Counted from the first letter of the stretch, positions 38-18,255 are shown. The stretch: 19,811 nt of DNA from Armatimonadia bacterium (GCA_039683575.1 JBDKRC010000059.1:1-19811), one strand, 5' to 3'. The notes: generated by a model from the letters alone, not told the origin. Numbers and translations are program-made.

Positions 38-1039
38 CTATTCCTGGTCCTCAAACAGCTTCTCGAACTTAATGGCCCATGCGGCCTCGTCTATCCCGTC
101 CAGCGCGCTCTGCATCGCCTCATTGGCCTTCAGCCACGCCCGCGTGTCCAATAGGGTATTGCTGCTCAGCACCGCCTGTAGGCCCTGCAGCGCCTCTTCC
201 GCCGCCTTCACCTGCCCCGCGATAGCCTTCTGCTTTTCGGGGTCGAACTTCTTCAGGTCGGCGCTCTTCACCGTCTTGAGCGCGTCGTTCAACTGCGCCT
301 CGAGGTCAATGCTTCTCTGGGCCGCCCGGGCGCACTCGATGAGCGTGGCCCGGTCACCGCTGCCGGCCTCGCCGCCGAATATGAGCCTCCCGAACTTCGC
401 TGGCTGATGGAAACCGCCCTGGCTGGGGCTCCAGCATGACCACTCGGTGTCGCCCTCGCCATTGCGGTCGCGGCAGACGTTGAAGCCCCACGTCGCGCCC
501 GGCACGCCGTACTGCCCGAATGACTTGAAGCTGATCGCACACTCGAGATACCACGCGTCCTTGCCCACCGAGCCGGCTGCTTGCCAGTCCGCACCCCAGC
601 CGGGGTTGAACCCGATTGCGTCGTACTTCGTGCCGATGCTGTTGGCGGCAAGCTGGTAGTAATCCGTTCCCTGCAGGTCCGGCTGCAGGAAGATCTCAAG
701 GGCATCATCGCCCATTACCGAGGACAGGTCGTCCACTTTGACCTGAGCAATGATCCGCTCCGGGCTCTTCTCAAGGCAGGTGATGCCCAGATAGAGCTTG
801 CCCTCGTCATAGACCGCCTGCAGGAGGGTCTGCTGCATGTTGGGTCCGCCCTTGAGCAGCCAGAACTCCCCGCTCGCGCTGGCCTTTTGCCAGCATGCGT
901 CATTGAGCTTGCCGTCAATCACCGGCGCCTGTGCCGCTCGCTGGCACTCATACAGCCGTTTCTTGCCCAGGTCCTGCGTATGACCTGCCACAACCGTCGC
1001 CAGCAGTATTGCCACAATCAGACAGTGATGCGCTCTCAT
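38..1039 (-). CDS. Secreted CBM9-like (DOMON-type sugar-binding) protein with C-terminal helical domain
   Basis: Signal-peptide-like N-terminus (MRAHHCLIVAILLATVVAGHTQ). CBM9-like motifs APVIDGKLNDACW, YDEGKLYLGITC, DDALEIFL, WYLECAI, WGFNVCR, WSP..GGFHQPAKFGRLIF. SD GGGGAG upstream of ATG 1039. Confidence 0.8.
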   Translation of the reverse strand: MRAHHCLIVAILLATVVAGHTQDLGKKRLYECQRAAQAPVIDGKLNDACWQKASASGEFWLLKGGPNMQQTLLQAVYDEGKLYLGITCLEKSPERIIAQVKVDDLSSVMGDDALEIFLQPDLQGTDYYQLAANSIGTKYDAIGFNPGWGADWQAAGSVGKDAWYLECAISFKSFGQYGVPGATWGFNVCRDRNGEGDTEWSCWSPSQGGFHQPAKFGRLIFGGEAGSGDRATLIECARAAQRSIDLEAQLNDALKTVKSADLKKFDPEKQKAIAGQVKAAEEALQGLQAVLSSNTLLDTRAWLKANEAMQSALDGIDEAAWAIKFEKLFEDQE

Positions 1040-1056
1040 CGCGTACTCCCCTGAGA

Positions 1057-2529
1057 TCAGACTTGGTCGGCAAGCCCCAGCCGCTCATACTGCTCGGCTG
1101 GCGCGTCATTCTCCCCCATCAACCGCACCAGGTGCTCGGTCATCTTCTGCTCAGTGGCGGGGTCGGCCACCGGGCGCTCCTGCTGCGGGTCATTCTCGCA
1201 GTCAAACAGCATCGTGCCGAAGTCCGCCGCGTTTCGCCACGAGCGCCCCTCGATCTTCATCGTGCGGCAGCCCTTGGTGAACGCAAACGGCTCCTGGAGC
1301 TCGATATCCTGCAATTCGTCCATGCCGAAGGCCCTCTTCATGTGCGTGGGCATCAGCGTGTACTCATAGAGTGGCTTGTTGTCCGGCTCGGTATTGGCTC
1401 GCATGTACACATAGCGCCCGTCCGTGCAGTTCACATGGGCCCCGAACAGCCCGAACAGCCCAGCCTCGCGCACCGGCGCCTCTTCGGCCACGGTGTCCCC
1501 GAGCGGCACGCCCTGCATGTCCGGCGGGCGCTCCACCCCGAAGTACTCAAGCACCGTCGCCGGCAGGTCAATCGTCTGCACAAGGCTCTGGCGCCGCTCT
1601 CCGGCCTTCCGGCAGCGCGGGTCCCAGATGAACAGCGGCGTGTGTGCGATCTCGTTATAGAAGGGTTGGCAGCACTTGGCCCACCAGTCATGCTCGCCGA
1701 GCAGGAAGCCGTGGTCCGTGTTGACGATCAGCATCGTGTCGTCCCAGAGGCTCAACTCGTCCATGAGGTCGAGCACGCGGCCGAGGTAATGGTCGCACAT
1801 GGTGTGCAGGGCCGCACTCATGGCCCGCATGTGGCGCACATCCTCGGGCGTCTCCTGAACCTGCCGGTACGGCGGCCAGTCCCAGTGCCGCTCCTGCAGA
1901 TAGTCCCGGTATAGGTCCTGGAACCGCTCCGGGCAGAAGTACGGCTCGTGCGGGTCGAAGGTCTCGAGGTGCAGGAACCAGTTGTCCTGGCCATGGTTGG
2001 CGCGCAGGAACTCTTCGCCCCGCGCGAAAGTCTGCGGCTGTGGCTGGTCTTCCTCGCTTGGCATGTACGCCCGGTTGATCCAGTCCTGTTTGAGCAGGTC
2101 ACCAGCCCGAAGCTCGTTGTTGCGGCTATCCGGCACCTGCACGCATAGCTCGCTGCGCCACGGGTCGCCCTCCTGCCCGCGGATGATGTCCCACGACGAG
2201 TAGCGGGTATGGTAATTGCACCCGCCCTCTTCCCAGTAATGATAGTGGTCGCTGATCAGGTGCGAGCGTATGCCCTGCTCATCGAGCAGCCGGGGCATGG
2301 AATCGTCAAACGGCTCCAAAGGCCCCCAACTGCGGTGCAGGAAGTTGTAGCGCCCCGTATGTAGCTCGCGCCGGGCGGGCATGCAGGGCATGCTGCCCAC
2401 GTAGCTGCAGTCAAAGACCACGCCCCGGTTGGCGAGCCGCTCGAAGTTCGGCGTGAAGACCCAGTCGCACCCATACGGCGACAGCATCCGCCGGTTCAGC
2501 GAGTCAAACATCACCATGATGGCCTTCAT
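1057..2529 (-). CDS. Formylglycine-dependent (Cys-type, S1) sulfatase, no signal peptide
   Basis: CMPARRELHTG (CxPxR) signature; metal-site motifs FDS, DPHEP, NTDHG; FDCENDPQQ near the C-terminus. ATG 2529 preferred over TTG 2535 because AAGGAG, overlapping the upstream TAA, lies 8 nt before it. Confidence 0.92.
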   Translation of the reverse strand: MKAIMVMFDSLNRRMLSPYGCDWVFTPNFERLANRGVVFDCSYVGSMPCMPARRELHTGRYNFLHRSWGPLEPFDDSMPRLLDEQGIRSHLISDHYHYWEEGGCNYHTRYSSWDIIRGQEGDPWRSELCVQVPDSRNNELRAGDLLKQDWINRAYMPSEEDQPQPQTFARGEEFLRANHGQDNWFLHLETFDPHEPYFCPERFQDLYRDYLQERHWDWPPYRQVQETPEDVRHMRAMSAALHTMCDHYLGRVLDLMDELSLWDDTMLIVNTDHGFLLGEHDWWAKCCQPFYNEIAHTPLFIWDPRCRKAGERRQSLVQTIDLPATVLEYFGVERPPDMQGVPLGDTVAEEAPVREAGLFGLFGAHVNCTDGRYVYMRANTEPDNKPLYEYTLMPTHMKRAFGMDELQDIELQEPFAFTKGCRTMKIEGRSWRNAADFGTMLFDCENDPQQERPVADPATEQKMTEHLVRLMGENDAPAEQYERLGLADQV

Positions 2530-2541
2530 CGACAAAGCTCC

Positions 2542-5500
2542 TTAGGGAAGGCTGATGGTCGTCTCGCCCGTCTGCCCGCTGATGGCATCTCGCGCGGTGA
2601 TCTTCCACTTCCCCGGCGTGTCGTTCAGCGCAAACTGCACCTGGCCTGTCGCCTTGCCCTTCTCCGTGCGCAGGTTCTGGCCGTAGTGCTTGCGTACCTG
2701 GCCATCTGGCCCGGTCACTATCACCTGGACATACTGCGGTCCCGGCGTTTTGCTCGTGGTCTGCAGCGTCACGTTCACAGTCGCCACCGGCCCCGTCTGC
2801 TGTCCCTTGGCCTGTCCCGGCGCCTTCGTCGCCGCCACCTTCACGCCAAGTATCTCATAGGGCAGCCGCGCGAACAGCTTCGCCCGCGCCGGCGTGAAGT
2901 CGCTCTGCCAGTCTGCCACTTCACCGAGATACTGCCCAGTCCGCATGTCGTAGGTATGCATCCGCCGGCCCTTGGCATCTACGCGGGCGGTCACTGTCTG
3001 CTCGCTTCCACTCGTGCGGTACTTCAGGAAGCCCACATACTCAACCGGCCCATCTTGGAAGCGTACGGTCTCCATCTGCCGCAGTGGATCGGCAGTCGGG
3101 TCGCCAGACACCCAGTACTTCGGCCTGACACCTGCAAAGGCCAGCGCCCCGTAGATCACAGCCCACTGCGGCCGCGCCTGCGCCTCGTTGCGCACCCGGT
3201 ACGGCGCGCCAAACCCGTAGTTCAGCAGCACGGTGCGGCCCTTGCCGGTCTGTTTGGTGATGGCGAGGGGGACCTCCCCGGCCTTGCCCATCGCGTGGCC
3301 ATCCGTTACCTGCACATCCCCGTCCACATCGAGCCCCGTCAGCTCGTACGGCACACCGGCCAGCAAATCGTCCTGTACCAGCCCGCTCTGGTTCTTCAGC
3401 GGCCCCTTGCCAGCCACGCGCTTGATCCCGAACAGGTCATCAAGCATCGCCGACGCCTGGGGCTTGCCATGTTGGTCCATCACCGCCGGGCGCACGTCCG
3501 CGATCAGCACGCCGCCGTCGTTCACGTACTTGCGGAAAGCCGTCGCCTCGGCCGGCGAAATCGCCTGCGAATAGGGCAGGAAGAACGCCGGGTACTCCTT
3601 GACGTCAATCCCGTCCTTCTCGATCTGTGCATAGGCGCGGCACTTGTACTGCAGGCCCATGTCCTCGAGCGTCCCAAATAGTTGCAGCCATACCCGGTCC
3701 AGCCGCCCCCATTCGCCATTCCACGAGCTGGCATGAACCGACGGCTGCGAGTAGTGAATGCCGATGCCGTCGTGCAGCCGCTGCGCGTTCATCAGAGCCT
3801 GCCCGCTGCCGGCGCGGAGTTCCTTCATCTCGTCGGTCGCCCACTGGAACGAGGGGTAAACGGTCGTGCTCGGCGTCATCGCGTCCATCGGGCAGATGGA
3901 CTTGGTGCCATGGTAGACCGCATACCACCACATGCTGTTGAAGCCGTTGAAGATACCCTTCCACGGCCACAGGCGCTCCTCGTCCTCGGTGCGATGCTCG
4001 AAGTAGCCGCCATACCACAGCCCCAGCAGCATCCCCGGCCGCGAGAACGAGCGCAGGAACTCCCATTGCGTCGGCTGGTGGAAGTACACGTTGCAGATGT
4101 CGAACGTGCTCATGAGCTGCCACCAGTCGTTGCCCGACTCGCTGCTGGTGTCAAACGGCCCGTCAAAGCCGACCTCGGCCGCGGGATCGCCCTTGCGGAT
4201 GGCATCCTCGGCGCGGGTCATCATCCGCGCGTATACGAACTCCATGTGACGGCGGTGATCAACCCACCGCGCCGGCTGGTTGGCCTGCTTGGCATCGGCA
4301 AAAGTGATCGGCTCCGCCTCATCGATGCTCTTGTAGTCCGTGCCCCAGGAGGCGTTCAGCGCCTCCACATTGGGGTACTCGCCTTTGAGCCACTCGCGCA
4401 GGTCCGCCACGCAGGTCGGTGAGAAGCACACGTCCACGCCATTGCGGGCCAGGAAGCACTCATCGCCGAGGCTCTACGCCCGCGGGCCATACGGCCCCAA
4501 CTCCGTCCCGAGCTTCTGCAGCCCCTCCAGGTGCCCGCTCAGGAACTTCGGGTCCGTCAGGCACGGCTTGCGCACCAGTTCCTTGCCCTCATACGAATAC
4601 CGCGTCGCGTACGGGATCGTGTCGAAGTTGTTCTGCGCCAGCCATGTCTGCCCGTTAACGCTCGTCGGGGCGTTCGTATGCATGTCCACATCGCAGTTCT
4701 TGAGCTGCTGGAAGTGCAGCCGCCGCACGTGGTCGTTCCGCTGGTCCGCCGCGCTCCAGACCGCGTGGGCATAATTGCCACGGCTGCGCTTGAGGGGCAC
4801 GTAGAGCATTGTCGAGGCGTTCGCTGCATTGGCCTGCTCAAGGGGCCGCTTGCCGGGGTTCCCCTCCAGCAGATACACCGTCACCTTCGCGCTCATGGCC
4901 AGCGGGTTGATCAGTTGGAACGGTATCGAGGTCTTCTCTGCGGCGGGGACCGATTTGCGCAGGATCTCACGCCCCACGCTATCGGTCGCCGTGAGCCACA
5001 GGGCCGCGCCGGGAGGTGGGGCAGAGGAGAGGGTGACCTCGGCGGTCACTGTCTCACCGGGCTTGGCTGAGGGGCGGTCGAGTGTCACCGAAGCGATATT
5101 GGGCTCTGAGGTCACCGTGAACGCCGTTGAGCCCCAGTTGGCTGACGCGGTGCCGTTTTTCAGTATGACATCCGCAAAGTACTTCCCCGCCGGTAGCAGC
5201 GGCATCGTCACCCGCAGGGCCTCGCCAGTCACCGTCGGCGTCGCCTTCAGCATGACGACATCGTCTTCGTCACGAACCGTCACTTCCGCCTTCAGCCCTG
5301 GCGTCGGCGCTGCAATCTTCACCACAAGCGGCGTTGCCGGCAACGCCTTGCGGTCCAGCGTCTCCGCACCAAGGGTGATCTCGGAAATCCCGACCCGCGG
5401 CTCCTTCTTGGCTGCCCACAGGATGCCCTTGAGCAGCAGGGACTGATAGTACTCGTAGTGTAGGTCTCGGTATGAGGTGGTGTCCGTATCCGGCAAGACC

Positions 5501-6243
5501 GGCGTCAGGCAGCAGAATATGGGCCGGCCGGGGTAGTTGAACAGCGCCATCCGCCCGTCATGGAACTGTCGAAGCTCCACGAACTCCTCCGGCTTCATCT
5601 TATCCAGCACCGGCAGCGCCTGCCATGGCACGCCATCCAGCAGCGCCGGCGCCTGGACCGTCCCGGGCTTGGCGAACAACCGCTTGATTACAGGCACGCC
5701 ATTCACCGTCGTCGTCTCGTCCACGAGCGGCTTGGCAAACAGCCGCTCCACCAGCTTGTTGCGCCCAAACTTGTGATAGCACGAGACCAACCCCGTCCCA
5801 TCATGGACCTTCTTCATGATGGTATACAGGCTCTCACGTGGGAACATGTCCCAGTTGATCAGGCCCGTGATGATGACGTCGTAGTCCTGCTTGAGCTTCG
5901 TATTGAGCTCCTGCGTCATCTCTTCCAGCGAGACGCCCTCGGCCGGAGCGTACGGCCCGGACTTGCTGGTCCAGCCGAGTTCATCCTGTGAGAGCGTCAT
6001 GACGCACTGATAATCCAGGTCAAGCCGCTCGGCAACCTCAATCGCCTCCCGCGCCCCTCCGCGGGGCACGATGAACAGCGCACGGACCTTACCCCCGGTG
6101 TAGGGCTTGGCCCAGGCGATGTGCGGGGAGACGAAGTCCTCGGTGAGGCGGTTGAAGTCCTTCTCCATGACATAGGCTTGGGCGGCCCCAGCCACAAAGC
6201 ACAACGCAACCATCATCACGATACCGCGGCGAAGAGACATCAT
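2542..6243 (-). pseudogene. Large secreted GH42/beta-galactosidase-like multidomain protein interrupted by one in-frame TAG (4474-4476)
   Basis: ORFs 4474..6372 and 2542..4437 are in the same frame and join as GPYGPRA*SLGDECFLARNGVDVCFSPTC. SD GGGAGG precedes ATG ATG at 6243/6240, followed by a signal peptide. GH42-like segments LREWLK.EY..VEALNASWGT and RWVDHRRHM; trimerisation-like LRKYV.DGGVLIAD; Ig-like end ALNDTPGKWKITARD. Pseudogene, read error and readthrough cannot be distinguished here. Confidence 0.7.
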
Positions 6244-6253
6244 CTGACCTCCC

Positions 6254-6276
6254 ATAGGGGCGCACAGGCTGCGCCC
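6254..6276 (+). repeat. Degenerate REP-like hairpin
   Basis: ATAG followed by stem GGGCGCA-CAGGC-TGCGCCC, adjacent to the SD of the large hydrolase gene. Confidence 0.4.
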
Positions 6277-6313
6277 GCGATCATGGCCCGGAGGAGCCGA
6301 ATGCCGGCAGCCT

Positions 6314-6406
6314 CGGAGATTCTTCGCTTCGCTCAGAATGACAACCATGCCGTCGCCTGTACCATTTGTCATTCTGATGAGCGCCGTTTGCGACGAGGAA
6401 TCTCCG
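6314..6406. repeat. Inverted pair of GTCATTCTGAGCGAAGCGAAGAATCTC-type ('VILSEAKNL') palindromic repeats
   Basis: 6314-6344 CGGAGATTCTTCGCTTCGCTCAGAATGACAA is complementary at its ends to 6366-6406 TTGTCATTCTG...CGAGGAATCTCCG. The element is intergenic. Confidence 0.7.
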
Positions 6407-6444
6407 GACCGGTGGGGTCCGTCCGGCCGGTGGTAACCGTCCCT

Positions 6445-7629
6445 TCAGTCATTCAGCAGCGAATCGAACTTCAACTCCCAGATACCCTCACGATACTCGG
6501 CAATTGCCTGCGACGCCGTCTGCTCCGCCCCCAGGTCCCCGCCCTTCATCGCTTCGAGGGCCGCCACGATCTTCTCACCCAGCGGCACCAGCGTCTTGCG
6601 CCACTTCGCTGGCTCGGTGGACTTGGCGATCATCGCCTCAAGCTCCGCCCGCTCTCTTGCGGCATCGTAGGTGACAACCTGCCGGTCCCGGAAGTCCGTC
6701 TCGCGCAGTCCCTTCGTGACCTCTCTCTCCACCTTCCGCAGCTGCGCCAGTGCCTCCGCGTTCGTCTTGAGGTGGAAGTCCCAGAACGCCAACCGTACCT
6801 TCCGTACCTCGGGCTTGACCGACAGCAGCGTCGTCACCGGGTAGTTGGTGACATTCAGCCTGGCGGTAGTTACCTGCTCGGGCAAGAACAGCAGCCCGCA
6901 CGGCCCCATGCTATCCTTCTCTTTAGCGAAATCGAAGACGGTGTCCTGGTACAGCAGCCAATAGTCCCTGGCGCCGTCCAGCGTCGCCTGATTGCCCTGC
7001 TCGGTCGTAGTCACCGGCCCTACCACCTCCCGCCACCCGTTGCGCTTGTTCCAGCTTGTGAAGAAGCTCGGGAAGCAGTTCAGGGCCAATTCGAGCTTCT
7101 TGATCTCTTCCTTCGGTTGCAGCGCCAGTTCACACAGCAGGTAATCCTTCTCCGGCAGCAGCATGAACCGCAGCCGCACCTGCCCCTCCGGCGGCGTCCA
7201 CAGCATCTCCACCACGCCTCGCTCGTCGCGCTCCACGATGCGCAGCGTGCTCGGCCGCACGTTCCCGAGGCTTTTGCCGTTGATCAGCACGTTCAGGAAC
7301 CCGCCGCCATACCAGTTCATGCCAGCGGGGCTTGGCATCCCAAGATAGCCCTCGGGTGACGGTTTGGTGCCAGGGCCATTGGTCTCCCAGTAGGCATGGT
7401 AGCTCAGCCCGTAGCGGATGAGTCCGTTTGTAAGCGTGAAAATATGCTGATTGTACTGGTAGCCTTCGGGGGTGGAAGCGGTGGCGGAGGGGTCTTTGCG
7501 GTCCTCGGAGACCTGCACCTGTGCCGGTGCGGACCCGAGCAATGCCAGGAGTGCCAGGCTGCAGACCACCGGTCTGCTGACCATAGGTCTGAAGATGAGG
7601 GGACTGCTGACGACGAACTTGCCGTTCAT
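6445..7629 (-). CDS. Secreted hypothetical protein (beta-rich N-terminal domain, helical C-terminal domain)
   Basis: 394-aa ORF with SD GGGAGG before ATG 7629 (alternative ATG 7584) and signal-like VVCSLALLALLGSAPAQ. No family recognised. Confidence 0.75.
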   Translation of the reverse strand: MNGKFVVSSPLIFRPMVSRPVVCSLALLALLGSAPAQVQVSEDRKDPSATASTPEGYQYNQHIFTLTNGLIRYGLSYHAYWETNGPGTKPSPEGYLGMPSPAGMNWYGGGFLNVLINGKSLGNVRPSTLRIVERDERGVVEMLWTPPEGQVRLRFMLLPEKDYLLCELALQPKEEIKKLELALNCFPSFFTSWNKRNGWREVVGPVTTTEQGNQATLDGARDYWLLYQDTVFDFAKEKDSMGPCGLLFLPEQVTTARLNVTNYPVTTLLSVKPEVRKVRLAFWDFHLKTNAEALAQLRKVEREVTKGLRETDFRDRQVVTYDAARERAELEAMIAKSTEPAKWRKTLVPLGEKIVAALEAMKGGDLGAEQTASQAIAEYREGIWELKFDSLLND

Positions 7630-7658
7630 GTCATCCTCCCAGATTTGAGGGCGTGAAA

Positions 7659-7685
7659 CTTCCCCGTCGCGCGTGTGTTTCCTTT
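7659..7685 (-). promoter_or_regulatory. Sigma-H-like promoter for the leftward unit
   Basis: Minus strand AAAGGAAAC-ACACGCGCGAC-GGGGAAG (AGGA-N17-GAA), about 30 nt before ATG 7629. Spacing fits the B. subtilis sigma-H consensus RNAGGAWWW-N11/12-RNNGAAT. Confidence 0.45.
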
Positions 7686-7691
7686 GTCGCC

Positions 7692-7719
7692 AAGGAATTC
7701 GTCTCGTGCACGTCGAAAT
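7692..7719 (+). promoter_or_regulatory. Sigma-H-like promoter for the DUF4838 gene
   Basis: AAGGAATT-CGTCTCGTGCAC-GTCGAAAT (AGGA-N18-GAA) upstream of SD GAGGAGG (7734-7740) and ATG 7752. Confidence 0.55.
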
Positions 7720-7751
7720 CCGCGGCTCAGCTCGAGGAGGTCCTACCTGCC

Positions 7752-10349
7752 ATGCGGTATTTGTGCCTGTCGCTGCTCATCGTGCTAGCTTTGCCGTGCT
7801 TCGCCGCTACCTGCCCGGTATACGACGGTTCGGCAAAGGCCGTCATCGTGTATCCTGACGGGGCTAAGGACGAAGGCAAGCAGGCTTACGAGGACCTTGC
7901 CCTATACCTCAAGAAGGCCACCGGCCAGGACTTCACCGTCGTGCCTGAGAGCCAGTTCAAGCCCGGTGCCGGCACGCCGATCTACGTTGGCAAGTGCGAC
8001 GCGGTGCGCGAGGCCCTCGGCCGTGAGATCCGCCGTCTCGACCGCGACGCCTATATCGTCTCCGTCGAGCCGTCCCGCATCATGCTCGTGGGCCCCTATG
8101 GCTGGTCCACGTACTGGGCCGTCTGCCAGTTCCTCGAAGACGTCGTCGGTGTCCGCTGGCTCATCCCTGGCCCGCTGGGCGAGGATGTGCCCCAGTGTCA
8201 GCGCATAGCCGCTCCCGTCGGCAAGCAGGTGTACACCCCCGTGATGCTCTCCCGCCTGTGGAGCGGCGCCCACTACGGCGGGCCCTGGAACCTCCGACAG
8301 CGCATCCACAGCCGGTACAATTTCCACCACAACCTCATCAACATCTTCGCTGTGGACAAGTACTGGGCGACACACCCCGAGTACTACCCTATCCATGGCA
8401 CCGAACGCTACAAGCCCGGCGGCCCGGACGACTGCGCTTGGCAGCCGTGTATGAGCAATGAAGCCACCGTCCAGCGTGCCGCCGACGCCGCCCGCGAGGC
8501 TTTTGGCAGCGACCCCACCCTCGAATCGTTCTCCTTCGGCATGAACGATGGCCAGGGCTGGTGCGAATGCCCCGGCTGCAAGGCCATAGACAAGCCCATG
8601 AAGGAGTGGCACGGCTTCTCCGGCGACAAGAGCGTGCTTTTCTATAGCTGGCTCAACCGCGTCGCTGCCAACCTCGAGAAAGACTATCCCAACAAAATGC
8701 TCGGCTGCCTGGCCTACTCCAGCGCCATCCTGCCGCCCCCGGGCATGAAGCTGCACCGCAACATCATCCCGTACTTCACCAGCAACCGCGCGGACTATTT
8801 TGACCCCAAGTTCAAGGCCCAGGACCAGCACCTCATCAAGTGGTGGTCCCAGTCCGCCAACCAGATGGGCATCTATGACTATGCCTACGGCGTCGGTTTC
8901 GCCGTCCCGCGCATCTATAACCATCTCTTCCAGGACGCGGTGAAGTATGCCGTGGCCAACAAAGTGAAGGGCTTCTACGCCGAGGTCTATCCCAACTGGG
9001 GTCTGGACGGTCCCAAGCTCTACACGATGGCCCGGATTGTCTGGAATCCCAACTGCAACGTGAACGCGATCACTAACGAGTGGAACGACCGCATGTTCCG
9101 CGAGGCCGCCGCGCCCATGAAGCAGTACTTCTTCCTCGCCGAAGACACCTGGCGCAAGCAAAAGGGCAATGGCGCGTGGGCCTACCGCCTCGCCGCCGAT
9201 CCCGCCCAGTTCCAGATCTTCAGCCCTGCGGTCATGGATCAGATGACCAAGTGTCTCGACGATGCTGCTGCGCTGGCCAAGGATGACCTCGTCAAGCAGC
9301 GCATTCAGTTCTTCCGCAAGACCTGGGAGCTAACCCGCATCCTCGGCGGCAACTACTGGGCCGGCATGCAGATTCAGCAGCTAATAGACAGGAACGTCCC
9401 CGTTGAAGAAGTCGCCCAGGCGATGCGCAGCATGGTTGATAGCATGGCGGGAGTCGATGTAGACGCCTACTTCAAGGCGACCTTCGACAAGGACCCGATC
9501 GCCTACTTCCCGCCGCTCAACGGCTGGTTCACGCCTCTCAAGGCCGGCGCGATGACCAACGCCACCCGCTACTTCGCCTCGGCCGTCGCCAACGAGGCCA
9601 TCAAGATGTCGCGCGAACAGGGCAAGCTCGACGGTGCCAGCATCCGTCGCAACATTGACAAGCGAGTGGCCGAGATCTTCGGCACGGACGGCTCGGACAA
9701 GTACCGCGCCACCGTCGCACGCATGCGCGACATGTCCCTGAAGATCGGCACCGCCGTCAAGGCTGAGGCCGCGCCGAAGGTTGATGGCGTCCTCGACGAG
9801 CCAGTGTGGCAGCGCTCGGACGTTCTGACCGACTTCATCACCTGGGGCGGCACCGGAGCTGCCGGGCAGGTAACCAGGGTCCGCGTGTGCTACGAGGGCT
9901 CGAACCTCTACGTTGGCCTAGAGTGCCTGCAGGACACCTCGAAGCTCGTGGTACAGTCCGCGCCGCGTGACGGTTCAACATGGAAAGACGATTCGGTGGA
10001 GATCTTCTTCAACAAGGGGATGGAGGCCGCTCCGCACGCGCAGTTCATAGTCAACGCCGCCGGGGCCTTCTTCGACCAGTATGACAAGGACGGCACGCAG
10101 GCCTACGCCGAGCGCCTCGCCCACAACTTCGACTGCTCCTGGGCTGCCAAAGTCTATCCCGACAAGTGGACCGCCGAGGTTCGTCTGCCTCTGCGCGAGC
10201 TTGGCGTTGACCCCGCGAAGCAGAACATGGTTCGCATGAACTTCGTGCGTAACTGCAACGTGGGCAAGGAAATGAACATCTCAGCGTGGTTCTCAAGCCT
10301 GAGAGCCCACGCCGACCCGCTCAGTCGCGGCTGGATCCTGTTCGAGTAG
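7752..10349 (+). CDS. Secreted DUF4838-domain protein with C-terminal CBM9-like domain
   Basis: Signal peptide MRYLCLSLLIVLALPCFAA; VCQFLEDVVGVRWLIPG, HPEYYP, QPCMSN, MNDGQGWCECPGC, CLAYS and YDY motifs typical of DUF4838 proteins. C-terminal APKVDGVLDEPVW...DDSVEIFF...WTAEVRLPL...RMNFVRN. Start moved to ATG 7752 on the SD. Confidence 0.8.
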   Translation: MRYLCLSLLIVLALPCFAATCPVYDGSAKAVIVYPDGAKDEGKQAYEDLALYLKKATGQDFTVVPESQFKPGAGTPIYVGKCDAVREALGREIRRLDRDAYIVSVEPSRIMLVGPYGWSTYWAVCQFLEDVVGVRWLIPGPLGEDVPQCQRIAAPVGKQVYTPVMLSRLWSGAHYGGPWNLRQRIHSRYNFHHNLINIFAVDKYWATHPEYYPIHGTERYKPGGPDDCAWQPCMSNEATVQRAADAAREAFGSDPTLESFSFGMNDGQGWCECPGCKAIDKPMKEWHGFSGDKSVLFYSWLNRVAANLEKDYPNKMLGCLAYSSAILPPPGMKLHRNIIPYFTSNRADYFDPKFKAQDQHLIKWWSQSANQMGIYDYAYGVGFAVPRIYNHLFQDAVKYAVANKVKGFYAEVYPNWGLDGPKLYTMARIVWNPNCNVNAITNEWNDRMFREAAAPMKQYFFLAEDTWRKQKGNGAWAYRLAADPAQFQIFSPAVMDQMTKCLDDAAALAKDDLVKQRIQFFRKTWELTRILGGNYWAGMQIQQLIDRNVPVEEVAQAMRSMVDSMAGVDVDAYFKATFDKDPIAYFPPLNGWFTPLKAGAMTNATRYFASAVANEAIKMSREQGKLDGASIRRNIDKRVAEIFGTDGSDKYRATVARMRDMSLKIGTAVKAEAAPKVDGVLDEPVWQRSDVLTDFITWGGTGAAGQVTRVRVCYEGSNLYVGLECLQDTSKLVVQSAPRDGSTWKDDSVEIFFNKGMEAAPHAQFIVNAAGAFFDQYDKDGTQAYAERLAHNFDCSWAAKVYPDKWTAEVRLPLRELGVDPAKQNMVRMNFVRNCNVGKEMNISAWFSSLRAHADPLSRGWILFE

Positions 10350-11085: not shown

Positions 11086-12969
11086 TTACCAGCCGCCCCC
11101 GCCTCCTCCGCCACCACCCCCACCGCCGCCGCCCCCTCCACCACCATCGCCGCCGGGCGAACTGGATAACGTGGAACTCATGCTGTTGATGGTGCTGAAT
11201 AGCCCGTCGCTGATGCTCTGCAGCGAAGGCAGGCTCACACTGGAGCCGATCCCGCCCCCGCCACTGCTGTCATAGCTCGACACGTACCACGTAGGCGAAT
11301 ACACGGGCTCCGGCCCAGCCTCAAGCTGCCGGATGAGCTTCTTCTCAACCCCGAACGCCACCGCATAGGGGAAGTATTGGTCCACGATCTTCTGCGCCTG
11401 CGGAGTCTCGCTGTAGCGCTTGAGGTTCGCCAGATACCGCTTGAAGGCGAGCCACTGCTGCCGCGCCTCGGCTCCTGGCCGCGTCCGCCGCGGCATCAGC
11501 GGGGCAAAGGCTATGAGCACTAGCGCAGACAAAATGCCTGTAGTGACCGCCCCGCCGACGGAAATCACATGAAACGCGGTCCCCGGATTCAGGCCCAACG
11601 CGAACAAGCTCGCCAGGAGAGCGACCAGCACTGTCAGCAGCCTGGCTTCTCCATGGGTCACCCTGTAGAACCAGATCATCGCCACCAGCGCGGACACGCC
11701 CCGCGCAACCCAGTGCCACGCTCCCGGGATGACGGCTGCGTCGAGGTAGAATCCTGCGACGGTGAAGCCCACCAGCAGCCCGTACATCGTATAGCGCTCG
11801 CGCACCTTGTTCGGCTTCTCCTCGAAAAAGCCGGCGCTGGTCACGCTCTGGTACAACTGCGCTTGCATCTGTTGGGCGGTCGTATAGAACTTGTCCTCAA
11901 GATCCTTGAAGTACACAGTGCTTCCCACGTCGGCGTCACTGGCAAACCCTAACCCTTGCAGCGCCGACTGCTCGAAATCCGGCGGCTCGGGCGGCATCTG
12001 CAGCAGTGTGATCCCGGTCTCCTGTTTGCTCGTCGGGTTCTCCTCCAGCCGCAGGAACCCCCGTGCCGCCAGGTCCATGATCGTCGCCGTAACGTCCCTC
12101 ATCTCCGCGCGCTCATCAATCAGTGTCCCGACTAGCCCCGGCGCCAGGTCCGACGGCGGCTCGGTAACATACTTCGCTGTCATCCGCGCCAGAGGGTCCA
12201 CACCATGCGTGTGGTAGGCCACGAGCATCCCCAGAAACACCGCCAGCACCGTAAGAAAGTACAGGAAGTATATCCAGCCGTCGTTCAGCAGCCTCACCGC
12301 CGAGAACACCTGCGGCAGCCCGCACTTGGGGAACCGGATACGGAACTCAAGGTCCTCTCCCGGCTGAACGTCCTCCGCATAGAACTGGACGCGGTTATCC
12401 TTTGAGACCTCAAGCTCTCGTTGGCCGCCGAAGGCATAGCTGGTGGCTTTGACCTCCGCTCCCGCCGGTAATGAATGCGGCAGGATAACCTCCACTTCGG
12501 CCAGCTTGATGTCTGCCTCCCTGTCCGGGAACAGCGGCTTCCAATAGAGCTCCTCGTACAGTCCGTACTGGTCCAGCGCGCCGTGTACGTTGTATGTCAG
12601 CCGCATGTTGACGTGTGTGTTGTCGTATGGCGGTTCGCCGACATCGCGGCTGCGCCATTTTACTCGCAGATGCCCTTCAGTCCGTTGGAGCGTATAGTAC
12701 CCCTTGTCGGTCGGGTTCCCCCGGCGGTATTCGCGGCCATTCTCAAACACTTTGATGTCGCTATATTGATCCACCCGTGACAAATCGAGATCGCGGTAGC
12801 CACCGTTCCACGCACCGTTGTATACATATTCCTGATCTTCGACCACGTGCAGCACCGCGTCATCCCCGACGGTAATGGTGACCTGCACCTTCTGCCAGTA
12901 CAGATCGCGCGCTGCGACGGGCGCTGCAATGGCGGCCGCGAATAGTAGGGGGAGAAGATACCGCGACAT
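11086..12969 (-). CDS. DUF2207 family membrane protein
   Basis: Signal peptide; ELYWK; PPSDLAPGLVGTLID...VTATIMDLAARGFL; several TM helices; WLAFKRYL; YFPYAVAFGV; Gly-rich tail ending GGGW. ATG 12969 has SD GAGGTG. Confidence 0.88.
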   Translation of the reverse strand: MSRYLLPLLFAAAIAAPVAARDLYWQKVQVTITVGDDAVLHVVEDQEYVYNGAWNGGYRDLDLSRVDQYSDIKVFENGREYRRGNPTDKGYYTLQRTEGHLRVKWRSRDVGEPPYDNTHVNMRLTYNVHGALDQYGLYEELYWKPLFPDREADIKLAEVEVILPHSLPAGAEVKATSYAFGGQRELEVSKDNRVQFYAEDVQPGEDLEFRIRFPKCGLPQVFSAVRLLNDGWIYFLYFLTVLAVFLGMLVAYHTHGVDPLARMTAKYVTEPPSDLAPGLVGTLIDERAEMRDVTATIMDLAARGFLRLEENPTSKQETGITLLQMPPEPPDFEQSALQGLGFASDADVGSTVYFKDLEDKFYTTAQQMQAQLYQSVTSAGFFEEKPNKVRERYTMYGLLVGFTVAGFYLDAAVIPGAWHWVARGVSALVAMIWFYRVTHGEARLLTVLVALLASLFALGLNPGTAFHVISVGGAVTTGILSALVLIAFAPLMPRRTRPGAEARQQWLAFKRYLANLKRYSETPQAQKIVDQYFPYAVAFGVEKKLIRQLEAGPEPVYSPTWYVSSYDSSGGGGIGSSVSLPSLQSISDGLFSTINSMSSTLSSSPGGDGGGGGGGGGGGGGGGGGGW

Positions 12970-12993
12970 GGTAGATCGCACCTCGAAGCCCAT

Positions 12994-13021
12994 CTTCGCC
13001 CCGTTTGCGGACCTCTCCTGC
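12994..13021 (-). promoter_or_regulatory. Sigma-H-like promoter for the DUF2207 unit
   Basis: Minus strand GCAGGAGAG-GTCCGCAAACGG-GGCGAAG (AGGA-N18-GAA), about 25 nt before ATG 12969. Confidence 0.5.
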
Positions 13022-13049
13022 ACAGCATAGGTCTCTCTGGCCGTGTGGG

Positions 13050-13079
13050 TTGACAAGGGCCTTTTCAGTTGACTATACT
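13050..13079 (+). promoter_or_regulatory. Sigma-70/sigma-A promoter
   Basis: TTGACA (13050-13055)-N18-TATACT (13074-13079) upstream of the rightward cluster. Confidence 0.75.
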
Positions 13080-13178
13080 GCCTGTAACTACCGGAAGACC
13101 AACTGCGCGCGAGCGGGCGCGCGGGCCGCTATTCCTGGCGCCCCAACCGTACCCGCCTGCGAAGGAGCTACCGCACAC

Positions 13179-14009
13179 ATGGCTGCACCCGAAGCTGCAG
13201 GACCCACTCCGGTGACCACGAAGACCACCTTCTGTCCCGAATGCGGACAGGAGAACCCCGCTCACCGTGGCGCCTGTGTCATCTGCTATAGTCCCCTCCG
13301 CCAGCTCGGCGGCGGCCTCCCCTGTCCGAACTGCGGCGAGGAGAATCCCAAAGACGCAAAGTTCTGCCAGCGCTGTGGCAACCCGTTTTCTTCCGGCGTG
13401 ACACGCCCCAAGACCATCAGTGAGGCCGCTCTCGCGGTGCTACACGGTGGCGTGGCCTCCCTCACGGAGGATTCCGAGGAAGGCTTCTATGAGGAGGAAG
13501 AGGGCGGCTTCATGGGCGCGGAAGAGGCCGAGGAGACTATGGGAGCCCCGGTAGCGCCACCGGCGCCGCCTGCTCCCGCTCCCGCGCCCCCGCCTGTGCC
13601 TGAGCCCGTCAGTGCGGCCGCCGCGGATGAGGATTTCCTTCCGCCGCCGCCTCCTGGCCTTGTGGAAGAAGAGGAAGTCTTCACGCCGCCTCCGCCCCCG
13701 CCTGCACCAGAGCCGGTCAGCGCCGCGGCCGCCGATGAGGATTTCCTACCGCCGCCACCTCCGGGCCTGGTGGACGAGGAAGAAGAATTCGTGCCGCCGC
13801 CCCCGCCGCCGGGGCTAGTGGAGGAAGAAGAAGAGGAATTCGTACCACCACCTCCTCCTCCGGCCCTTGAGGAAGAGGAAGCCGCTCCCGCAGCGCCTCC
13901 GGCCGCTCCGCCTGCCGGGCCCGCGCAGCCGCCTGCGGCGGCTCCCGCCGCGGCCGAGGAAGAAGACTTCGGCGACTGGTCGCTTGACATTGAAGACAAG
14001 TCGAGCTAG
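13179..14009 (+). CDS. Double zinc-ribbon protein with long acidic proline-rich disordered tail
   Basis: CPEC..CVIC..CPNC..CQRC followed by repeated (D/E)F.PPPPP units. SD AAGGAG at 13162-13167 before ATG 13179. The track start 13005 lies upstream of the promoter. Confidence 0.8.
   Translation: MAAPEAAGPTPVTTKTTFCPECGQENPAHRGACVICYSPLRQLGGGLPCPNCGEENPKDAKFCQRCGNPFSSGVTRPKTISEAALAVLHGGVASLTEDSEEGFYEEEEGGFMGAEEAEETMGAPVAPPAPPAPAPAPPPVPEPVSAAAADEDFLPPPPPGLVEEEEVFTPPPPPPAPEPVSAAAADEDFLPPPPPGLVDEEEEFVPPPPPPGLVEEEEEEFVPPPPPPALEEEEAAPAAPPAAPPAGPAQPPAAAPAAAEEEDFGDWSLDIEDKSS
13599..13880 (+). repeat. Intragenic coding repeats (PEPVSAAAADEDFLPPPPPGLV x2; EEEF(V)PPPPP units)
   Basis: A 22-aa identical unit starts at 13599 and 13707 (108-nt period); shorter variants follow. 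Confidence 0.85.
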
Positions 14010-14015
14010 TCTGCC

Positions 14016-14699
14016 ATGAACTCTGTGGCGGCTAATCTCCAACGAGTACAGGCTACGATTGAGGCCGCGGCCGTTCGCGCGGGCCGTGACCCATCCGAAG
14101 TCACGCTCGTAGCAGTAAGCAAGACCCGAGAACCTTCCGAAATCGCCGCCGCCGCTGCCGCCGGAGCCACTGAATTCGGCGAGAACTACGTTCAGGAGCT
14201 CCTGAACAAGCAAAAAGAGCTCGGCGGCATTCACTGGCACTTCATAGGCCACCTGCAGCGCAACAAGGTCAGGTTCATATTGCCCTTCTGCGCTATGGTA
14301 CACGTGGTAGACAGCGTGCGCCTGGCCCAGGAAATCGACCATCGCGCCAGGCAGCTTGACCGCCTTCAGCCCGTCCTGCTGCAGGTTGACCTGGCTGGCG
14401 AAGAGACGAAGTTCGGCTGCCCCGAGAATCTAGTGGAGGAATTGGCGCAGGAACTGGCTAACCTGCCCAATGTGGACTGGCAGGGGCTGATGACGATCCC
14501 GCCGCTGGCGGGAGAGCCGGAGCAGTCTCGTCCGTATTTCATCCGCCTGCGCGAACTGCGCGACAGACTGAGAGAACGTTTCCCTGACCAACCACTGGCC
14601 CATCTGTCTATGGGCATGTCCATGGATTACGAAGTAGCCATCGAAGAAGGAGCCACACTAGTTCGCATCGGTACCGCAATTTTCGGCCCCAGGCATTAA
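14016..14699 (+). CDS. yggS: PLP homeostasis protein, YggS/PLPBP family
   Basis: LVAVSKT (PLP lysine), FGENYVQE, WHFIGHLQRNK, LSMGMS.DYEVAIEEGAT.VRIGTAIFG. Confidence 0.97.
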   Translation: MNSVAANLQRVQATIEAAAVRAGRDPSEVTLVAVSKTREPSEIAAAAAAGATEFGENYVQELLNKQKELGGIHWHFIGHLQRNKVRFILPFCAMVHVVDSVRLAQEIDHRARQLDRLQPVLLQVDLAGEETKFGCPENLVEELAQELANLPNVDWQGLMTIPPLAGEPEQSRPYFIRLRELRDRLRERFPDQPLAHLSMGMSMDYEVAIEEGATLVRIGTAIFGPRH

Positions 14700-14781
14700 C
14701 CGTTCGTGCCCAGGGACTTTTGACATCACGTCCAGCAATAATCATCGCAGCCTTACACTACAGCACGGGAGGATCTAGAAG

Positions 14782-15255
14782 ATGTCATTTCTGCAGACGG
14801 CCATGGACTACTTGGGGTGGGGCAACGACCTCAACGGGGACCCGACAGACTCCGACTACGACTACGAAGAGCAGTACGAACAGCCCGAGCCGGTCAGCCG
14901 CCGGGACAATGGCGTGATTCCGCTGCGCCAGGAGCGCAACGAGTTCGCCGGCGTCAGCATTGTGCGCGCGGACCCCAAGAACATGGACCAGGCCACCACT
15001 GTGGCCGACGAGATCAAGCGCCGCCGCCCCGTGCTGCTCAACCTCCAGGGCGCTGCCGAGCCCGAAGCCAAGCGCATCCGCGATTTCATTGGCGGCGTCA
15101 CCTACGGCCTCAACGGCTACATGCGCCGCGTCTCCGACTGGGTCTACGTCTGCGCTCCCTTCGACATGCCCGTCGAAAAGCTCGTCCTCGATGGCCCCCG
15201 CGCCGGCGAGCCGCGCTACGAAACCAACGATAGCCGCTCGATTCAGGAACTCTAG
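14782..15255 (+). CDS. sepF: Cell division protein SepF
   Basis: N-terminal amphipathic helix MSFLQTAMDYLGW, acidic linker and PVLLNL...AKRIRDFIGGVTYGLNG core. SD GGGAGG; follows yggS. Confidence 0.9.
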   Translation: MSFLQTAMDYLGWGNDLNGDPTDSDYDYEEQYEQPEPVSRRDNGVIPLRQERNEFAGVSIVRADPKNMDQATTVADEIKRRRPVLLNLQGAAEPEAKRIRDFIGGVTYGLNGYMRRVSDWVYVCAPFDMPVEKLVLDGPRAGEPRYETNDSRSIQEL

Positions 15256-15273
15256 AGCGGTCAGGATCACCTC

Positions 15274-16077
15274 ATGTCAACTTATCAACTCGGTGTCATC
15301 GGCACCGGGGCCATGGGTTCGGCTCTGGTAGCCGCAGTTATTAAGGCCGGTGCCGTCCCTGCTAATCAAGTACTGGTCAGTGATGTGCGTCCGGAGGCCC
15401 TTGAGGCCTTCGCTGCCGCCACCGGTGCCGCGACCACCACTGATAACCAGCGTGTCCTCAACGAATGTGACACCATTCTGCTGGCTCTGAAGCCGCAGAT
15501 CCTGTCAGTCGCCCTTGAGCCGCTGCACCCGCGTCCCGGTCAACTGATCATCTCAATCGCTGCCGGCGTGTCGCTGGCGAAGCTTGCCGGCATGCTCGGC
15601 CCCGACCAGCCGCTGGTCCGCGTCATGCCCAATATCCTCGCCACGGTCGGCGCGGCCGCCTCCGGCTATGCCGGCAACGCCCTGGCCACTGCCGAGCATC
15701 TGGCCTTCGCGGATCGTCTACTGTCAAGTGCCGGCGCAGCCGTGCGCGTCGATGAGAAGCTCCTGGATGCCGTTACCGGCCTCTCCGGCAGCGGCCCTGC
15801 CTTCGTCGCGGTGTTTGCCGAGGCCCTCGCCGATGGCGGCGTGGTGGCCGGCCTCCCGCGGGCGGATGCTGCCAAACTGGCCGCCCAGATCATCATGGGC
15901 GTCGGCAAGTGGCTACTGGAGAATCCGGCTGGCCCGGCGGCGCTCAAGGACATGGTGAGTTCGCCTGGCGGCACGACCATCGCCGGCGTTCGCGCCCTCG
16001 AAAACGGGGGCTTCCGCAGTGCCGCCATCGAGGCCGTTGTGGCGGCCGCGCAGCGCTCGCGCGAGTTGGGGAGTTAG
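15274..16077 (+). CDS. proC: Pyrroline-5-carboxylate reductase
   Basis: GVIGTGAMG, LALKPQ, ISIAAGV, VRVMPN, AVTGLSGSGPAF, VSSPGGTTIAG. Confidence 0.97.
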   Translation: MSTYQLGVIGTGAMGSALVAAVIKAGAVPANQVLVSDVRPEALEAFAAATGAATTTDNQRVLNECDTILLALKPQILSVALEPLHPRPGQLIISIAAGVSLAKLAGMLGPDQPLVRVMPNILATVGAAASGYAGNALATAEHLAFADRLLSSAGAAVRVDEKLLDAVTGLSGSGPAFVAVFAEALADGGVVAGLPRADAAKLAAQIIMGVGKWLLENPAGPAALKDMVSSPGGTTIAGVRALENGGFRSAAIEAVVAAAQRSRELGS

Positions 16078-16098
16078 GGAAGACGAAGTGGTGCTGGC

Positions 16099-16383
16099 GT
16101 GCGAATAAGCGATCTAGTTGCCAACCTTTTTGACCTGTACTATATCATCCTCGTGATCCGTGTACTCCTGAGCTGGCTGCCGCAGCGATCTTACGGCAGC
16201 AAGCTCAGCCGGTTCGGTTCGCTCATCTACGGGCTCACAGAGCCGCTGCTCCTGCCGATTCGGCGGGCGCTGTGGCGATACCAGGGGGGCATGCAGGTCG
16301 ACTTCTCCCCTTTGGTCCTGATGCTCCTGATCTTCGTCGCCAGAGCAATCAGCCTGAAGCTGCTCTGGTCGCTCGGGCTCTAG
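16099..16383 (+). CDS. yggT: YggT/YlmG family membrane protein
   Basis: IRVLLSW, LTEPLLLPIRR and DFSPLV motifs; GTG start. Confidence 0.92.
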   Translation: MRISDLVANLFDLYYIILVIRVLLSWLPQRSYGSKLSRFGSLIYGLTEPLLLPIRRALWRYQGGMQVDFSPLVLMLLIFVARAISLKLLWSLGL

Positions 16384-16405
16384 TCATTCCTTCCAGGGGC
16401 CACCC

Positions 16406-17830
16406 GTGGGTATCTCCCGTCCATCCGAAGCCACTTCTCACCTCCGTCTCGTGATCATCGTCGTGATGATCGTGACCGCTGCCGCCCTGATTATGGGCAG
16501 AGAAGACGTGGGTAAGCTCCCCACCGGCGACTGGTACGCTTCCTCCCGCCAGGCCATCATTCAGGCCGACCTCATGTACCGCATGGCCTCGTACTGGGAC
16601 GCCGCTACCGGGGGCGAGTCCAGCTTCCACAGCCACCAGTGGCAATTGCGTGAGAGGGCACTGGCCGAGTACGAGCGCGAGAGCCTCGTGGAGCGTCCCA
16701 ATCCGGTCGCCCTCCACCGTCTCGGCATCATCTACGGCGAACGCGGCTACAGTCAACAGGCCCAGCAGGTTCTCAACCGCGCCGCCACCCTCGATGAAGA
16801 GCGCGCGGGCCTCTACTTTGCCCTCACCAATGTCTATGGTGCCAAGCCACACAAACTCGCGCCTCCGGCCCTGCAGCGCTTGCGCCAGCAGGAGCAGTGG
16901 CTGGCCGACCTCTCCCTGAGCGCCTACTACCGACGCCTCGATCCCCAGCGCGCTCAGGCCGTCGAGCAACAAGCCGCAGAGCACACCCGCCGCTTTGGCT
17001 TGCAGTTTCTCCTGACGCTTACCACCTATGGCGGCCTCGGCCTCATCGGCGCTATCATCGTTTTGCTGGCCATCATCCGTCGCGGCTTCTACGTCCAGCC
17101 GCCGCCGCCTGTCCGCCCCCCGATGCTCGTGCCGTGGGAGCCTCTTGATGCTATCGAAGCAGTCGGGGTGCTATACTTCGGCATGGCTGTCATGGGCGTG
17201 GGCGTGGGCATGTTGCTTGGCCAGACCGTGCTGCACGACGCCCCGCCTGTGGTCCGCGTCATTGTCACCGGAATTCAGTACTTGCTGTTCTCGGGCGCCA
17301 CTCTTGCGGTCCTGTGGCGGCGTATACAGGCTCCGGTACAGCGCCGCTGGCGGATCCTTGGCCTGCGCACAGGTGAGATGGCCAGGCTGATAGCCAACGG
17401 CATTGGCGGCTACGGCGTCCTCGTGGTCGCCCTTGTGGTGCTCACCTACACCTTCTCCGGTGGGCGCATTCTCGGCTTCGCGTCGTTCGGGCAGGCCGGC
17501 GAGCGCCTCGTGTCTTCTGCCACCGGACCCGGCGCGAGAGTGCTTCTCTTTGTCCTGATCTGCATCATTGCTCCGGTCATCGAAGAGATCATCTTCCGGG
17601 GCTTCGTCTACGCGGGCCTGCGCCGCCGCATGACCGTAACGAGCGCGGTCGTCGCCAGCGCTCTGCTTTTCGCCCTGATGCACAACAACCTCGACGCCCT
17701 CTTCACCATCGGCATCATAGGAGTAACCCTCGCCGTGCTCTACGAGCGGACACGCTCCCTGGTTCCCTGCATAGTCTGCCACGCCCTGAACAACACCCTC
17801 GTCTTCTTCCTTCTACTCCTGACCCAGTAG
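16406..17830 (+). CDS. CPBP (Abi/type II CAAX) intramembrane glutamic protease with N-terminal TPR-like domain
   Basis: EEIIFRG, FALMH and HALNN motifs. TPR-like ALHRLGIIYGERGYSQQAQQVLNRAATLD lies between TM1 and the later TMs. Start codon uncertain. Confidence 0.88.
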   Translation: MGISRPSEATSHLRLVIIVVMIVTAAALIMGREDVGKLPTGDWYASSRQAIIQADLMYRMASYWDAATGGESSFHSHQWQLRERALAEYERESLVERPNPVALHRLGIIYGERGYSQQAQQVLNRAATLDEERAGLYFALTNVYGAKPHKLAPPALQRLRQQEQWLADLSLSAYYRRLDPQRAQAVEQQAAEHTRRFGLQFLLTLTTYGGLGLIGAIIVLLAIIRRGFYVQPPPPVRPPMLVPWEPLDAIEAVGVLYFGMAVMGVGVGMLLGQTVLHDAPPVVRVIVTGIQYLLFSGATLAVLWRRIQAPVQRRWRILGLRTGEMARLIANGIGGYGVLVVALVVLTYTFSGGRILGFASFGQAGERLVSSATGPGARVLLFVLICIIAPVIEEIIFRGFVYAGLRRRMTVTSAVVASALLFALMHNNLDALFTIGIIGVTLAVLYERTRSLVPCIVCHALNNTLVFFLLLLTQ

Positions 17831-17858
17831 CCGCCGCCGGCCCTTGCCGCATTCAGGC

Positions 17859-17886
17859 CGCGTAGGTGGGTTCGTCCCGAACCCAC
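17859..17886 (+). repeat. Single GTAG-REP hairpin
   Basis: CGCGTAG-GTGGGTTCG-TCC-CGAACCCAC, same family as 10367. Confidence 0.85.
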
Positions 17887-17968: not shown

Positions 17969-17975
17969 GCCTCCC

Positions 17976-18248: not shown

Positions 18249-18255
18249 GACGACT

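Follow-up and report, generated by a model that had tools for sequence, protein, structure and literature searches.

The dockerin-cohesin pair assembles secreted carbohydrate-active enzymes in cellulosomes and in the glycosidase complexes of Clostridium perfringens, dockerins being duplicated Ca-binding loop-helix repeats. Outside cellulosomes, glycoside hydrolases are mostly seen as single chains with covalent binding modules, and the known CBM9 modules are parts of enzymes. Here we describe a locus of an Armatimonadia bacterium (GCA_039683575.1, JBDKRC010000059.1:1-19811; "the window" hereafter means this whole stretch of 19,811 nucleotides) that encodes a CBM9-like protein (A), a galactose-mutarotase-like protein (B) and a large GH42-like hydrolase (H) as separate gene products, and in which A and B, two unrelated and presumably non-catalytic proteins, end in a similar helical tail. 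We propose that this tail is an attachment module that would hold the accessory subunits A and B non-covalently on H, a reading to which we assign a probability of about 0.5, the binding itself being predicted.

The genes form one minus-strand run (window 38-7629) in the order B, H, sulfatase, A. A preliminary description of the sequence had presented A and B as the last and first genes of this run, which is correct, as are the sequences, coordinates and tryptophan positions that it gave for them. The features on which the argument rests are:

6445..7629, minus strand: gene B (P0002), 394 amino acids, with a signal-like N-terminus, a galactose-mutarotase-like beta-supersandwich (about residues 37-310) and a helical tail
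6448..6663, minus strand: helical tail of B, residues 323-394, with helices 323-335, 340-362 and 366-393 in the AlphaFold2 (AF2) model
6448..6480, minus strand: terminal motif of B, WELKFDSLLND (W384-D394), with the stop codon directly after it
2542..6372, minus strand: gene H, a GH42-like hydrolase about 1,276 codons long, made up of the open reading frames (ORFs) P0005 and P0004 in one frame with a single TAG between them
38..1039, minus strand: gene A (P0001), 333 amino acids, with a signal-like hydrophobic N-terminus, a CBM9-like beta-sandwich (about residues 28-223) and a three-helix bundle (residues 230-332)
41..355, minus strand: helical tail of A, residues 229-333, with helices 230-258, 267-291 and 299-332 (AF2)
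47..79, minus strand: terminal motif of A, WAIKFEKLFED (W321-D331), with QE between it and the stop codon

The terminal motif and its carriers

The C-terminus of P0001 is SALDGIDEAAWAIKFEKLFEDQE (W codon at 77-79) and that of P0002 is QAIAEYREGIWELKFDSLLND (W codon at 6478-6480); the ending of A reads WAIKFEKLFEDQE and that of B WELKFDSLLND. The likeness between the two endings is real and exceeds chance. When A and B were compared directly by BLASTP, the match was weak (E 0.07, 9 of 29 residues identical, at the C-termini). We then used the strict pattern W.[ILVM]KF[DE].L[FLIVM].[DE] on all ORFs of at least 60 amino acids in the genome from which the window comes (n=54,614). Three ORFs matched, namely A, B and a copy of A truncated by the end of contig C22, and in all three the motif stood at the end of the ORF, finishing 0-2 residues before the stop; 20 sets of residue-shuffled ORFs gave a mean of 0.0 matches. 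An ungapped comparison of the last 21 amino acids of P0002 with the C-termini of the same ORFs returned, after P0002 itself, a paralogue of B, P0001 and the C22 copy as best matches, the noise scoring clearly below the last two. Finally, profiles made from the last 105 amino acids of each family aligned with an hhalign probability of 91.5% (E 8.5e-7), only the last 28 columns matching. The shared motif announced in the preliminary description stands on the pattern count with its shuffled sets, the comparison of C-termini and the profile comparison.

The motif is also conserved among the orthologues of both proteins, as had been asked of it. In homology-search alignments of 27 B-family and 35 A-family proteins it was retained down to about 30% identity in both families, in the more general form W-x-[ILVA]-[KR]-[FILM]-x-x-L-[LFI] with 2 to about 10 residues after it. 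In an alignment of 30 A sequences W321 and L328 never varied and F325 and L329 hardly ever, and the conservation of W384, L391 and L392 among 25 B sequences was 0.96, 1.0 and 0.92, respectively. On the evidence of these alignments, the last helix is the portion of the helical domain that is common to families A and B.

To find other carriers, a hidden Markov model (HMM) of the terminal helix (35 columns) was built from both families. In the bacterium's own genome (6.2 Mb) it matched four ORFs at E <= 0.0014: A, the A fragment on C22, B and the B paralogue on C51. We also collected 80 genome loci around relatives of B, comprising 9,611 ORFs. They contained 63 matches (E <= 1), all at most 10 residues from the stop, of which 48 were B and 15 A; there was no H ORF among them. 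A looser ending, [KR]-h-x-x-h-h within the last 16 residues, was present in 75 of the 79 complete B ORFs and 24 of the 27 short A ORFs, and a tail match in none of the nine long CBM9 proteins of these loci. Among 151 Armatimonadota genomes, 12 had a tail match and 139 had none. The matches numbered 22; the 21 that could be classified were all A or B, the remaining one (L101) falling below the classification threshold. A search for the tail region of P0002 (residues 288-394) on longer proteins gave nothing at E <= 10, which is weak evidence, and a metagenome scan with the family A alignment added few full modules, most of what it returned being short contigs and CBM9 proteins of other kinds. 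The HMM scan proposed along with the motif did bring up C-terminal matches in this proteome and in relatives, in many loci near GH42-like genes, and those classified all belonged to families A and B.

Confined to two families, the tail is unlikely to be a general tag for sorting or anchoring. The preliminary description had considered that the tail could be a lineage-specific export or anchoring signal, i.e. a sorting, export or envelope-anchoring tag recognised by a lineage-specific machine, and a position at the very end of proteins that start with a signal-like segment would suit such a role. We consider it very improbable, and the restriction to A and B in the own genome, among the classified matches of the 151 genomes and in the 9,611 locus ORFs speaks against it: only 4 ORFs of a 6.2-Mb genome carry the tail, 139 of the 151 genomes of the phylum have no match, and H is absent from the 63 matches, although it would be expected at the same location as A and B. 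The tail moreover has no hydrophobic span, no basic end and no match to a sorting domain of Pfam or NCBIfam. Its distinctness from LPxTG, PEP-CTERM, the C-terminal domain of the type IX secretion system and dockerins, claimed at the outset, was borne out. Both tails end in acidic or polar residues, without the hydrophobic span of an LPXTG- or PEP-CTERM-type anchor and without a Pfam or NCBIfam match to one; they are all-helical and did not match the C-terminal beta-sandwich domain of the type IX system in either database; and the dockerin profile gave no Pfam match at E <= 0.1, the tail being made of three long helices. For FIVAR- and GA-type modules the fold class agrees, the likeness is generic, and Pfam again gave no match at E <= 0.1. 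More generally, no Pfam (threshold E <= 0.1) or NCBIfam model covers the tails of A and B, and a search of PDB sequences with the A and B alignments and the tail profile found only the CBM9 domain or chance-level matches (best E for the tail 0.056). The tail is thus not an already described domain, in so far as it has no Pfam or NCBIfam model and no clear sequence match to a solved chain.

The hydrolase H, the fused paralogues and the proposed role of the tail

Relatives of B were found in Armatimonadota, Lentisphaerota/Victivallales, Kiritimatiellota, Planctomycetota and WS1. A homologue of H (about 1,150-1,250 amino acids) adjoined B on the same strand in 53 of the 80 loci, and in 24 of the 28 loci that had at least 5.2 kb on either side; A was present in 28 of the 80. 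The genes occurred in the orders B-H-A, A-H-B, H-A-B and H-B, and in the 32 of the 80 loci that had H and no A within reach, B kept its tail. All 12 tail-positive Armatimonadota genomes had a match to the H family, vs 45 of the 151 overall, the tail-positive genomes being interrelated. As for H itself, the intact orthologue in locus L002 passed the Pfam cut-offs for both GH42 (27.2 bits, cut-off 21) and GH42M (30.3 bits, cut-off 25.8), and in the window P0004 passed the former (25.5 bits) and stayed under the latter (17.4 bits). The sequence SLGDE is conserved in the barrel region of 45 aligned H orthologues.

The own genome also encodes proteins in which the same beta-sandwich domains are fused to the hydrolase:

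L182:262-4809 (G000:C77), plus strand: fused paralogue L182, 1,515 amino acids, with an ATG start and a signal-like N-terminus
L183:826-5379 (G000:C70), minus strand: fused paralogue L183, 1,517 amino acids

Residues 26-268 of the L182 protein resemble residues 43-285 of P0002 (30% identity, E 2e-26), and this B-type domain is followed by GH42 (854-1010) and GH42M (1175-1301). Residues 36-257 of the L183 protein resemble residues 8-228 of P0001 (37% identity, E 3e-39), with CBM9_1 at 64-251 and GH42 at 961-1073. Both proteins match H across nearly its whole length. In both, the similarity ends at the point where the helical tail of the free protein starts, and the tail HMM gave no match to either. 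A metagenome protein (P0089, from the L166 ORF; 1,608 amino acids) combines a B-like domain, CBM9_1, a GH42M hydrolase and F5/8C, again without tails. Among the best 150 representatives retrieved with it, 75 had CBM9 followed by the hydrolase, one had the order B-A-H and one B-A; none had a C-terminal tail, a single weak match being internal.

Further modules of the own genome are unfused, namely H-A-B on C169 and C345 and H-A on C48; the first two are loci L184 and L185:

G000:C169, 6848-13343, plus strand: unfused H-A-B module
G000:C345, 3061-8794, minus strand: unfused H-A-B module

The tails of these H-A-B modules are divergent, with W replaced in B, and the end residues of A and B are F/F in C169 and I/I in C345. 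We compared tail types within modules, using a tree made from the N-domain of B, with its last 45 residues omitted, which contained four supported clades. The tails of A and B varied between clades and were alike inside three of the four. In the clade of the window both have F at +4 and end in L-L-x-D; in the largest one A and B share L at +4 and the ending L-[LI]-x-x-[ILV]; and in the H-A-B clade W is lost in 4/4 B and 3/4 A, both proteins ending with an identical residue. Tail scores between A and B were 25.1 within the same locus and 21.7 with other loci, a difference reached by 111 of 20,000 permutations with relatedness ignored, and the 12 residues preceding W gave no same-locus effect in the same comparison. 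These sequence patterns make co-variation of the A and B tails suggestive.

Such matching could also mean that the tails pair together, A with B or each with itself, for instance as in-register helices that make up an accessory unit, dimeric or multivalent, which would touch H secondarily or not at all. The identical motif at the extreme C-terminus of both proteins agrees with this, as do the equal length of what follows L-L in the A and B of a module clade and the matching end residues (I/I in L050, L067, L070, L080 and C345; F/F in C169). We nevertheless hold pairing to be distinctly improbable: B retains its tail in the 32 loci with H and no A within reach, the A and B tails are unlike in the Lentisphaerae clade, and the fused paralogues join each beta-sandwich to H and not the two to each other, P0089 and P0125 being exceptions.

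AF2 gave confident models of both proteins, with predicted local distance difference test scores (pLDDT) of 92.3 for A and 89.2 for B. The N-domain of A belongs to Pfam CBM9_1 (PF06452; 36.9 bits vs a cut-off of 23.4, residues 41-220) and has the CBM9 beta-sandwich fold of PDB 1i82 (Foldseek E 3.4e-14; VIA Z 22.6, root-mean-square deviation (rmsd) 2.4 over 180 residues). The tail model of A aligned to antiparallel three-helix bundles (3rgu, Z 11.9, rmsd 2.3, 88 residues aligned), a generic resemblance, as VIA itself notes that Z values below about 13 are common for helical bundles. B has no Pfam or NCBIfam family and was matched in the Atlas by unnamed clusters only; NCBIfam had nothing further for A, B or H. 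The fold of B was related by Foldseek to GH36, GH38, YidC-P1 and aldose epimerase (E about 2e-6) and by VIA to 5xq3 (Z 16.7), 7ufs (Z 16.2) and 2wyh (Z 15.8), the matches ranging from Z 16.7 to 13 over about 200-245 residues, with a sequence identity of 4-12% to the matched structures. Family B is large, with invariant EGY[LI]GMPxP and NWYxxGF, and occurs in at least four phyla, often as several paralogues per genome. After its beta-supersandwich, B continues with helices 290-310, 323-335, 340-362 and 366-393. In these models the motif forms the final helix of a compact bundle and so would not be a free helix. Of the amphipathic terminal helix that had been put forward, the helical ending was retained; it would be part of a compact helical domain, with three helices in A, rather than a single free helix.

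We favour the attachment of A and B to H because the motif is conserved and confined to these two families, A, B and H are syntenic, the fused paralogues lack tails and the tail types match. We infer that all three proteins are exported, presumably each separately through Sec, and that the tail binds a partner, most likely at a site on H. The bundle would then keep A and B attached to H, or to one another within an H complex; it would replace the covalent link present in the fused paralogues, and H would be supplied in trans with a subunit for carbohydrate binding and a mutarotase-like N-domain. Signal peptides had been attributed to both A and B: hydrophobic, signal-like stretches are present at their N-termini, as judged by eye, and export itself is presumed. 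Docking onto the large hydrolase, also suggested earlier, fits the synteny and the tail-less fusions; this support is indirect and the binding predicted. Prediction of a complex of A (24-333) and B (37-394), with alignments, gave a score of 0.00 in both runs, which had no controls and weigh neither towards nor away from binding.

Several observations weigh against this attachment. In 20 of the 80 loci both H and A were missing from the surroundings of B, in many cases on short contigs. The 150 best representatives retrieved with P0089 included three stand-alone B-like proteins of about 296 amino acids without a tail, so the beta-sandwich can occur unfused and tail-less; the tail-less B-like proteins stop at a position that aligns just after helix 290-310 of B. 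In most metagenomic fusions the GH42M region is the only one in which the hydrolase part fits the H profile. Few independent events underlie the co-variation, which was calculated with relatedness ignored and fails in the Lentisphaerae clade. Furthermore, AF2 places the last helix (pLDDT about 94-98) inside the compact bundle, so the conserved W/F/L-L face may be core and not interface, and in family A helix 1 of the tail (R230, I234, E235, A240, S243, L246, E247) is conserved equally with the last helix, which makes the whole helical region a conserved domain.

The last two points also favour the main rival explanation, that the tail has a purely structural or spacer role, as an inherited or converged bundle whose hydrophobic core includes the motif, A and B acting alone near H. 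The high pLDDT through the last residues, the resemblance to generic three-helix bundles and the position of W, F, L and L on one helical face (read from their spacing), as in a core, go in the same direction. This explanation leaves unaccounted for, however, the loss of the bundle exactly where a beta-sandwich joins the hydrolase, the presence of the bundle in only two families, both linked to H, and the matching of A and B tail types within modules, and we judge it unlikely.

Beyond the attachment of A and B to H, it is quite possible, and we put this forward tentatively, that the tail is a new docking module that builds a secreted hetero-oligomeric glycosidase from a GH42-like chain, a CBM9 subunit and a mutarotase-like subunit, each exported separately. 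In that case the A and B tails would evolve in step with a single receptor site on H, and docked and fused forms would replace each other freely in the course of evolution.

Other features of the locus

The reading frame of H in the window is not intact, and a sulfatase gene and a divergent gene accompany the module:

4474..4476, minus strand: in-frame TAG within H; the corresponding column of the 45-orthologue alignment has Y in 34 and W in 11, and the conserved SLGDE comes directly after it
1057..2535, minus strand: sulfatase P0003, 492 amino acids, between H and A (Pfam Sulfatase, E 1.2e-32)
7653..10349, plus strand: DUF4838 (GH20-like) protein, divergent neighbour, with a C-terminal CBM9_1 domain and without the tail (Pfam)

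The single TAG is a nonsense mutation or an assembly error. In-frame stops were also seen within the H matches of other genomes (two TAG in G016, one TAG in G011, one TGA in G092 and one TAA in G082). In the assembly of the closest relative, each of two H genes (L001:11093-14757 and L020:10908-14277, both plus strand) consisted of two overlapping ORFs, pointing to a frameshift or to an assembly error in both.

The sulfatase has no obvious signal segment and lies outside the conserved module: the only P0003-like ORF in the 80 loci (L011) was about 6 kb from the module, and in the closest related locus (L001) A comes directly after H. A DUF4838 and CBM9_1 gene is divergent beside B in L002, like the divergent neighbour in the window; in L035 and L037 the divergent genes beside B encode long CBM9 proteins, the one in L037 also with GH123_N. 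An apparent fusion of B and H in L051 was an artefact, as a run of N separates the two and B there begins with a start and a signal of its own. We likewise dropped the idea that module genes are read through or were split recently, since neighbouring genes were in the same frame at 23 of 78 junctions, about one third as expected.

The rest of the window contains a DUF2207 gene (11086-13056, minus strand) and a plus-strand housekeeping cluster (13005-19778) that is unrelated to the findings above and, by Pfam, encodes a zinc-ribbon protein, a YggS-like protein (Ala_racemase_N), SepF, pyrroline-5-carboxylate (P5C) reductase, YggT, an Rce1-like protease, DUF167, DUF6775 and Amidase_3.

Comparison with known systems

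A search of literature titles and abstracts (GH42, CBM9 and Armatimonadota; helical-bundle subunits) found nothing relevant. If the proposal is true, a widespread module of poorly studied phyla would supply a carbohydrate-binding module and a mutarotase-like domain as subunits by means of a small helical domain; the large family B, now without a Pfam family, would acquire a function; the tail could serve as a compact natural tag for assembling enzyme complexes; and docked and fused paralogues within one genome would offer a ready comparison. For annotators, short "hypothetical" or "sugar-binding" genes beside such hydrolases are probably parts of enzymes.

The individual components have counterparts elsewhere. 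The N-domain of A shares its profile and fold with CBM9-2 of Thermotoga maritima Xyn10A (1i82). Unlike the known CBM9 modules, A stands alone as a protein and carries the helical tail; the same genome also encodes the fused form (L183). The fold of residues 37-310 of B is common to the galactose-mutarotase-like domains of GH38, GH36, GH65, GH15 and PL26 and to YidC P1; in those enzymes the domain belongs to the catalytic chain, whereas B is encoded by a gene of its own and carries the helical tail. Three-helix modules of surface proteins (Fap1 NR-alpha, 3rgu/2kub; Embp, 6gv8; SCIN) align with the tail of A, generically and without sequence relation. H orthologues pass both cut-offs of GH42 beta-galactosidases (PF02449 and PF08532) and keep SLGDE, but H is about twice as long as these enzymes, has a signal-like N-terminus and additional N- and C-terminal domains, and is accompanied by A and B.

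As a whole, the system is closest to dockerin-cohesin. Both have a short non-catalytic C-terminal module on putatively exported glycan-processing proteins and a presumed multi-protein assembly, and in both the same domains are combined covalently in some cases and non-covalently in others. This analysis found no cohesin-like receptor. The A/B tail differs from a dockerin in being a three-helix bundle, in occurring on two families only and in that its binding is predicted here. By analogy, the tail would resemble dockerin-type assembly in function, yet it is no dockerin, and the docking module proposed above would represent a simple alternative to cohesin-dockerin across Armatimonadota and the Planctomycetota-Verrucomicrobiota-Chlamydiota (PVC) phyla.

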